Assembly: GCF_003334815.1 (NCBI RefSeq)
Contig: NZ_QOWO01000123.1
Source of the DNA: Escherichia coli
GTDB lineage: Bacteria; Pseudomonadota; Gammaproteobacteria; Enterobacterales; Enterobacteriaceae
Length of the DNA: 676 bases
Reading direction: 5' to 3' (one strand)
In this document: in pieces, positions 1 through 676 of the stretch
Position numbering within the stretch: the first letter of the stretch is position 1
How the letters are laid out: each line of letters opens with the position of its first letter
The notes under the pieces: model-generated
Told to the model about the DNA's origin: nothing
Database searches by the model: none
What the model saw: the letters and a program-made list of their open reading frames with translations, nothing else
Position numbers and translations under genes: made by a program

Positions 1-23
1 GGTAATGCTGCCAACTTACTGAT
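1..23 (+). repeat. IS1 left terminal inverted repeat (IRL)
   Basis: The sequence ggtaatgctgccaacttactgat matches the recalled canonical IS1 IRL (GGTGATGCTGCCAACTTACTGAT) at 22 of 23 positions (A for G at position 4). The partner IRR is outside the window, so the inverted repeat cannot be confirmed internally. Confidence 0.85.
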
Positions 24-35
24 TTAGTGTATGAT
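9..35 (+). promoter_or_regulatory. Putative insA promoter overlapping IRL (approximate)
   Basis: A -10-like hexamer tatgat at 30..35 and a weak -35-like tgccaa at 9..14 with a ~15 bp spacer. The IS1 insA promoter is known to lie partly within IRL; the exact hexamers here are my reading and are uncertain. Confidence 0.3.
12..24 (-). promoter_or_regulatory. Putative IHF binding site within IRL
   Basis: The reverse complement of 12..24 is aatcagtaagttg, which matches the IHF consensus WATCAANNNNTTR with one mismatch. IHF binding at IS1 ends is established knowledge; this placement is by motif inspection only. Confidence 0.4.
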
Positions 36-44
36 GGTGATTTT

Positions 45-50
45 AAGGTG
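45..50 (+). promoter_or_regulatory. Shine-Dalgarno-like sequence for insA
   Basis: aaggtg sits 5 nt upstream of the GTG start codon at 56. Confidence 0.5.
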
Positions 51-55
51 CTTGC

Positions 56-331
56 GTGGCTTCCATTTCCATCAGATGTCCTTCCTGCTCCGCTACTGAA
101 GGCGTGGTGCGTAACGGCAAAAGCACTGCCGGACATCAGCGCTATCTCTGCTCTCATTGCCGTAAAACATGGCAACTACAGTTCACTTACACCGCCTCTC
201 AGCCCGGTAAGCACCAGAAAATCATTGATATGGCCATGAATGGCGTCGGATGTCGCGCCAGTGCACGCATTATGGGCGTTGGCCTCAACACGGTTTTACG
301 TCACTTAAAAAACTCAGGCCGCAGTCGGTAA
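56..331 (+). CDS. insA: InsA, IS1 transposition inhibitor / DNA-binding protein (91 aa, GTG start)
   Basis: ORF track 56..331 gives [91 protein letters not shown]. It is the same length as canonical IS1 InsA and close to it as recalled, with a CxxC...CxxC N-terminal zinc-finger motif (C8, C11, C32, C35) and a C-terminal helix-turn-helix-like region. The start is GTG (position 56 = gtg), as in canonical IS1. Stop is TAA at 329..331. Confidence 0.93.
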
Positions 332-676
332 CCTCGCGCATACAACCGGGCAGTGATGTGATTGTCTGCGCTGAAATGGACGAACAGTGGGGCTACGTCG
401 GTGCTAAATCACGTCAGCGCTGGCTGTTTTACGCGTATGACAGGATACGGAGGACGGTTGTGGCGCACGTCTTCGGTGAACGCACTCTGGCCACACTGGA
501 GCGTCTTCTGAGCCTGCTGTCGGCCTTTGAGGTCGTGGTATGGATGACGGATGGCTGGCCGCTGTATGAATCACGCCTGAAGGGAAAGCTGCACGTTATC
601 AGCAAGCGTTACACTCAGCGCATTGAGCGACATAATCTGAATCTGAGACAACATCTGGCAAGGCTGGGACGGAAGT
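250..676 (+). CDS. insB: InsB / C-terminal part of the InsAB' transposase (3'-truncated by window edge)
   Basis: Manual translation of frame 1 from ATG at 250: [142 protein letters not shown]..., with no stop before position 676. It closely resembles recalled IS1 InsB (…[46 protein letters not shown]…[49 protein letters not shown]…). It is absent from the ORF track presumably because it runs off the window. The functional product is the InsAB' fusion (56..~312 joined to 310..end) made by -1 frameshifting. Confidence 0.88.
307..313 (+). other. Programmed -1 ribosomal frameshift slippery site (A6C) for InsAB' transposase
   Basis: aaaaaac at 307..313 lies in the insA frame as tta-aaa-aac, 16 nt before the insA stop. 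The -1 frame (window frame 1) is open from 229 to the window end. This matches the established IS1 A6C frameshift mechanism. Confidence 0.85.

Follow-up and report, generated by a model that had tools for sequence, protein, structure and literature searches.

Results

Organization of the window

The stretch of DNA analysed here (the window, 676 nucleotides) corresponds to bases 1-676, the left 88%, of IS1, a 768-bp element, here of the IS1F isoform lineage. It consists of element sequence alone, without flanking DNA. It opens with GGTAATGCTGCCAACTTACTGAT, the IS1 left inverted repeat (IRL), continues through insA and ends within the overlapping insB frame (Table 1). The final 92 bp of IS1 (bases 677-768) lie outside the window; they encode residues 143-167 of InsB and its stop, contain the right inverted repeat (IRR) and terminate in ...GTTGGAGTCATTACC.

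Table 1 Features of the 676-nucleotide window. Coordinates are window positions; candidate and promoter-like entries are predictions from motif or consensus matches.
Feature	Position	Strand	Basis and remarks
Left inverted repeat (IRL), IS1F-type (GGTAATG... vs IS1A GGTGATG...)	1..23	+	Window begins at element base 1
Promoter-like site CTGCCA, 16-nt spacer, TATGAT; candidate insA/insAB' promoter	8..35	+	Consensus scan, 9/12
insA, 91-aa repressor/DNA-binding protein with zinc ribbon and helix-turn-helix (HTH); complete, GTG start	56..331	+	ORF list, Pfam
insB frame, -1 relative to insA	250..676	+	142 of 167 codons present, all open; full-length stop at 751-753
A6C slippery heptamer AAAAAAC, -1 programmed ribosomal frameshifting to give InsAB'	307..313	+	Exact motif, in insA/insB overlap
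Candidate catalytic Asp 1, InsB D44 in EMDEQW	379..381	+	Motif pattern
Candidate catalytic Asp 2, InsB D101 in MTDGW	550..552	+	3 codons after W98 (541-543)
Candidate catalytic Glu, InsB E126 in RIERHN	625..627	+	24 residues between D101 and E126

The IRL differs from that of IS1A at position 4, and the IRL and IRR of IS1F have been reported to be distinct from the IS1A-E ends (PMC12903888). When the 23-bp ends of a full-length 768-bp copy 100% identical to the window (L003 3001-3768) were compared with one another, they paired at 20 of the 23 positions. The promoter-like site overlaps the IRL, and a weak IS1 promoter partly overlapping the IRL has been described (PMC12428005). Three sigma-70-like sites were found in the window versus 0.4 expected from shuffles; the two others, each a 9/12 match, fall within insB (608-636 on the plus strand and 661-632 on the minus strand).

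InsA matched the Pfam families Zn_ribbon_InsA (PF03811, 2.7e-19, residues 1-36) and HTH_Tnp_IS1 (PF12759, 2.5e-26, residues 43-86), together with the NCBIfam model NF050000 (IS1/IS1595 zinc domain). The insB frame matched DDE_Tnp_IS1 (PF03400, 8.4e-58) over model positions 1-106 of 131, the match being cut by the window end. The product fused by a -1 slip scored 244.4 bits against NCBIfam NF033558 ('IS1 family transposase'), for which the cutoff is 100. As is typical of the IS1 family, an A6C heptamer links two overlapping ORFs, one in the 0 and one in the -1 phase. The initial annotation of this DNA described both reading frames and the A6C site as intact; this holds for insA and for the heptamer, but insB can be traced only as far as codon 142 of 167.

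Comparison with IS1A and IS1F

The IS1A reference (19796-20563, reverse strand) and the IS1F reference (4518472-4519239) were both taken from the annotated K-12 MG1655 record NC_000913. Ungapped comparison of the 676 bp with IS1A gave 610 matches, 66 mismatches and no gaps, or 90.24% identity. The substitutions fall throughout the window: 6 in bases 1-55, 16 where insA alone is encoded, 7 where the two frames overlap and 37 where only insB is present. Comparison with K-12 IS1F over the same 676 bp gave only two mismatches (99.70% identity). The window has the IS1F-type allele at all 66 of its sites that separate IS1A from the IS1F type, and its identity to the IS1F type is even along its whole length. 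Between the two references we counted 73 mismatches over 768 bp, in agreement with the published values of 73 mismatches and 90.5% identity for IS1F, the 'type IV' IS1 (PMC12428005, PMC12903888; designation of Umeda and Ohtsubo 1991, as given in PMC12428005).

At the protein level InsA differs from its IS1A counterpart at six of 91 residues (V4I, S7R, D15E, T52K, T69S and I80V), exactly the differences listed in the initial annotation. The insB frame has 15 differences from IS1A in the 142 codons present, nine of which lie downstream of the slip site. The three InsB segments that had been quoted for the window, namely the N-terminus, the change of DSLRKT to DRIRRT and a segment of 17 residues for which IS1A has ATLGRLMSLLSPFDVVI, proved exact in translation.

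The window is thus the divergent IS1 isoform with many scattered substitutions that had been proposed. At 90.24% it lies below the identity of at least 99% to IS1A taken beforehand as the mark of canonical IS1A/IS1R, and its best matches were all IS1. The contrast drawn with 'canonical K-12 IS1' stands insofar as the window differs from IS1A, but it is inaccurate as worded because IS1F is itself carried by K-12, being one of the six IS1 copies of that strain. Database labels are in keeping with the assignment. The depositor of a GenBank copy with 99.7% identity labelled it 'insertion sequence: IS1 family IS1F', and 'IS1-like element IS1F family transposase' is a PGAP product name in use. Judged by these alignments and labels, the isoform is one already named and common, and not an unnamed one. 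A literature search on the names IS1N, IS1SD, IS1X2 and iso-IS1 yielded only resistance-plasmid papers, none of which tied these names to the IS1F sequence.

Selection on the reading frames and the frameshift site

Between the window and IS1A, dN/dS was 0.081 for insA (56-249) and 0.083 for insB beyond the slip site; the two wrong frames gave 4.5 and 6.7. Read in the insA frame, the part of the overlap that precedes the slip site gave 0.15, whereas in the insB frame these bases (250-312, 21 codons) show seven nonsynonymous and no synonymous differences from IS1A. The pattern of selection therefore changes frame at the slip site. Seven nonsynonymous and no synonymous differences are what is expected if the InsAB' fusion alone is made, and insB has been reported to encode no separate protein (PMC12428005). 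By this measure, protein-level selection acts on insB only beyond the slip site (from about 313), and the heavily altered 'InsB N-terminus' (MSRQCT vs MPGNSP) is unselected sequence, the frame being untranslated there.

The A6C heptamer occupies 307-313 not only in the window but also in IS1A, in IS1F and in a copy from an O145 chromosome. RefSeq tags identical copies 'programmed frameshift', and the role of the motif in IS1 frameshifting has been described (PMC12428005). A search of both strands against Rfam at E <= 1 gave no match and hence no curated RNA family over the IS1 frameshift region. Minimum free energy folds of 314-400 and 314-440, computed by a method without pseudoknots, differed between IS1A and the window and gave no conserved stimulatory hairpin.

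The three candidate DDE motifs of InsB are identical in the window and in IS1A and stand at the same residues, and on motif pattern D44, D101 and E126 are probably the DDE residues. The 24 residues lying between D101 and E126 agree with the spacing reportedly described for IS1 by Ohta et al. in 2002.

The window lacks the lesions of the K-12 and fec-locus copies

K-12 IS1F is a damaged copy. It carries the lesions InsA H34P, InsB W98* and S143L, and its insB7 is annotated as a pseudogene. At position 156 the window reads CAT (InsA His34) where K-12 IS1F reads CCT (Pro), and at position 542 it reads TGG (InsB Trp98) where K-12 IS1F reads TAG. The third lesion, in codon 143, is past the window end. 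As the W98* stop comes three codons before MTDGW and 28 before RIERHN, only one of the three candidate catalytic residues would remain in the truncated product. K-12 IS1F reportedly does not move without transposase provided in trans; in the K-12 experiments only the nonsense-bearing copy was used, and it moved only when an IS1A-type InsAB' was overproduced (PMC12428005, PMC12903888). With transposase supplied, IS1F was the most mobile of four non-consensus copies and accounted for 44% of events (PMC12903888).

A 61-base probe gave exact matches to the nonsense allele in 2,851 E. coli records versus 4,233 for the intact allele, the latter count taking in mosaics with an F-type right half. In three of three further chromosomes (E2865, 503025 and ATCC 11775) the nonsense copy sits at the K-12 site, downstream of fecIR-ykiE. 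G542A (W98*) and C677T recur in both fec-linked copies that could be aligned in register (E2865 and 503025); the ATCC 11775 copy, at this locus and likewise with the nonsense allele, contains an indel and was left out of the base-by-base alignment. Each of the two aligned copies shows private decay: in E2865 C313A turns A6C into A7, and 503025 has five further transitions. From these alignments the fec-linked nonsense copy appears to be a vertically inherited, decaying relic passed on with the fec locus. Note that the plasmid pTB211 (NZ_CP033251.1, around 36638-37279) carries an IS1 fragment with W98* that is 5'-truncated and frameshifted, and hence the nonsense allele also occurs away from the fec locus.

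Identical and near-identical copies elsewhere

Annotated E. coli, plasmid and phage collections were searched with the window. Copies in many complete E. coli chromosomes (O145, O103, O157 and others), and one on a plasmid, match all 676 bp at 100% identity. A match of at least 99% was found in 3,877 E. coli records, and many Shigella plasmids carry copies 99.9% identical to the window. Every 100% match that was inspected extends as a full 768-bp element. NZ_CP028379.1 1264483-1265250 is one example of an intact IS1F-type element of this length. One such 768-bp copy, with no differences, interrupts dgcZ and is flanked by an 8-bp target duplication, GTTTATCG; a second, also without differences, interrupts a fimbrial chaperone gene and has a 9-bp target duplication, AACTTCCTA. 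The six IS1 copies of plasmid pSB4_227 of S. boydii Sb227 are all IS1F-type (one to three mismatches per 768 bp to the full-length form of the window's element, versus 68-70 to IS1A), and three of the six have 9-bp target duplications.

Two exact copies, at L003 3001-3768 and L005 1501-2268, have no target duplication. The flanks are fragments of genes unrelated to each other, for a CPBP endopeptidase and an alpha/beta hydrolase in one case and for hchA and an HD-domain protein in the other, an arrangement suggestive of recombination between IS1 copies or of IS1-mediated deletions.

Alternative readings of the window

Very probably the window is an IS1F-type IS1 in its intact, transposition-competent form. 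One competing reading, that the window is canonical IS1A/IS1R and only seemed divergent owing to a faulty reference, is discarded: direct alignment gives the 66 mismatches and 90.24% reported above, and every IS1A residue given in the initial annotation agrees with the IS1A translation from NC_000913. The reference used there was accurate. A mosaic of IS1A and IS1F might be entertained, since such elements exist (NZ_AP021894.1) and the best match of 1,055 E. coli records falls in the 95-99% band, but with IS1F-type alleles at all 66 discriminating sites this origin is rejected for bases 1-676 (bases 677-768 hold only three informative sites), and we give it next to no weight. Only slightly more credible, and still very unlikely, is that the window is the fec-locus relic itself, the vertically inherited defective copy next to fecIR-ykiE. 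That allele is widespread, as the 2,851 records and the three chromosomes attest, and the window is only two mismatches from K-12 IS1F. Both mismatches, however, are exactly the lesions of the relic within the span of the window, and G542A is in all aligned fec-linked copies; positions 156 and 542 thus lead us to reject the identity.

The reading with the most substance, although we consider it improbable, is that of an IS1F-type remnant, 3'-truncated or non-autonomous for another reason, that ends at or near base 676, without IRR and InsB C-terminus, and is immobile. The window does end at base 676 of 768, and damaged IS1 copies exist, the frameshifted and 5'-truncated pTB211 copy being an example. 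Against this, the first letter of the window is exactly base 1 of the element, its 676 bases contain no lesion, and all inspected 100% matches continue to the full 768 bp. A 676-base record at a repeat edge would also be in keeping with a collapsed repeat contig from a short-read assembly. IS1F-type copies vary at base 677, immediately beyond the window, intact ones having C and fec-linked relics T. The stop at 676 might therefore reflect a collapsed-repeat unitig broken at a point of divergence between copies, although among the copies examined no combination first differing at 677 was found.

Discussion

The isoform identity of the window, its intact coding capacity over 676 bp, the purifying selection in exactly the frames that the IS1 model predicts and the presence of identical copies, flanked by target duplications, at independent sites are direct observations. 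We infer that this copy is complete beyond base 676 and active. The intact IS1F form is likewise probably functional, given the selection signatures and the identical mobile copies elsewhere. The proposal that this is a functional divergent member of the family and no decayed copy is thus supported, at the level of sequence, by dN/dS of about 0.08, the A6C site, the Pfam and NCBIfam matches and the identical copies with target duplications. In principle these identical copies could have been mobilised in trans by co-resident IS1A-type elements, but the F-type coding frames are under strong purifying selection, which speaks for a lineage that relies on its own proteins.

In the mechanism established for IS1, insA and insB are transcribed from a weak promoter that overlaps the IRL. 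Standard translation yields InsA, which through its zinc ribbon and HTH binds the inverted repeats and represses the promoter. A rare -1 slip on AAAAAAC joins the DNA-binding domains of InsA to the DDE domain encoded in the insB frame, giving the transposase InsAB', which moves the element and leaves target duplications of 8-9 bp.

IS1 is one of the earliest insertion sequences to have been reported, and its isoform IS1F was already named in 1991. The window was rightly regarded as a known kind of element (99.70% identical to IS1F and 100% to copies in many E. coli chromosomes): it is an already known, ordinary and common mobile element. A divergence of about 10% from IS1A should not be counted as novelty, either by annotation pipelines or by readers. 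Two deep IS1 lineages, the A-type and the F-type, coexist with their mosaics in the Enterobacteriaceae. Note also that the IS1F of the K-12 reference is a dead copy (W98*), and functional statements based on K-12 need not hold for the intact form.

A broader proposal, which we regard as possible but doubtful, is that the intact IS1F type, and not the IS1A 'consensus', is the main autonomously active lineage through which IS1 has expanded in Shigella and in a number of pathogenic lineages of E. coli, and that its more symmetric inverted repeats may give it an intrinsically higher activity. The exact copies at many sites and the six pSB4_227 copies, all of this type, are compatible with the proposal, as is the finding that IS1F ends moved most when transposase was provided (PMC12903888). 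If it were true, the K-12 finding that 'IS1F is immobile' would reflect one nonsense mutation in a fec-linked relic. Even so, a leading role of the IS1F type is an extension of known biology and not a new kind of system.

Relation to known IS1 elements

The nearest named relative, K-12 IS1F, shares with the window its IRL, its A6C site and the set of substitutions that separates it from IS1A, but it is defective whereas the window is intact at both lesion sites inside its span. IS1A, IS1E and IS1R, the 'consensus' IS1 of most experimental work, share with the window the 768-bp architecture without indels, the insA/insB overlap, the A6C heptamer and the Pfam and NCBIfam families. At position 210 the window has A (InsA K52), whereas the six pSB4_227 copies all agree with IS1A in having C (T52); the multicopy IS1 of Shigella virulence plasmids was historically named 'iso-IS1'.

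The mosaic IS1 of NZ_AP021894.1 (L006 61-828) is about equally distant from both types (identity 94.7% with the IS1F type, 94.5% with IS1A), with six private changes, and is followed 672 bp downstream by an exact copy of the IS1F type (L006 1501-2268). It has IS1A alleles at the informative sites from 4 to 372 and IS1F alleles from 396 to 750, so that its right half (from about 396) shares the IS1F-type alleles of the window while its left half is IS1A-type. This arrangement of alleles suggests that the two IS1 lineages have recombined, the junction lying between 372 and 396.
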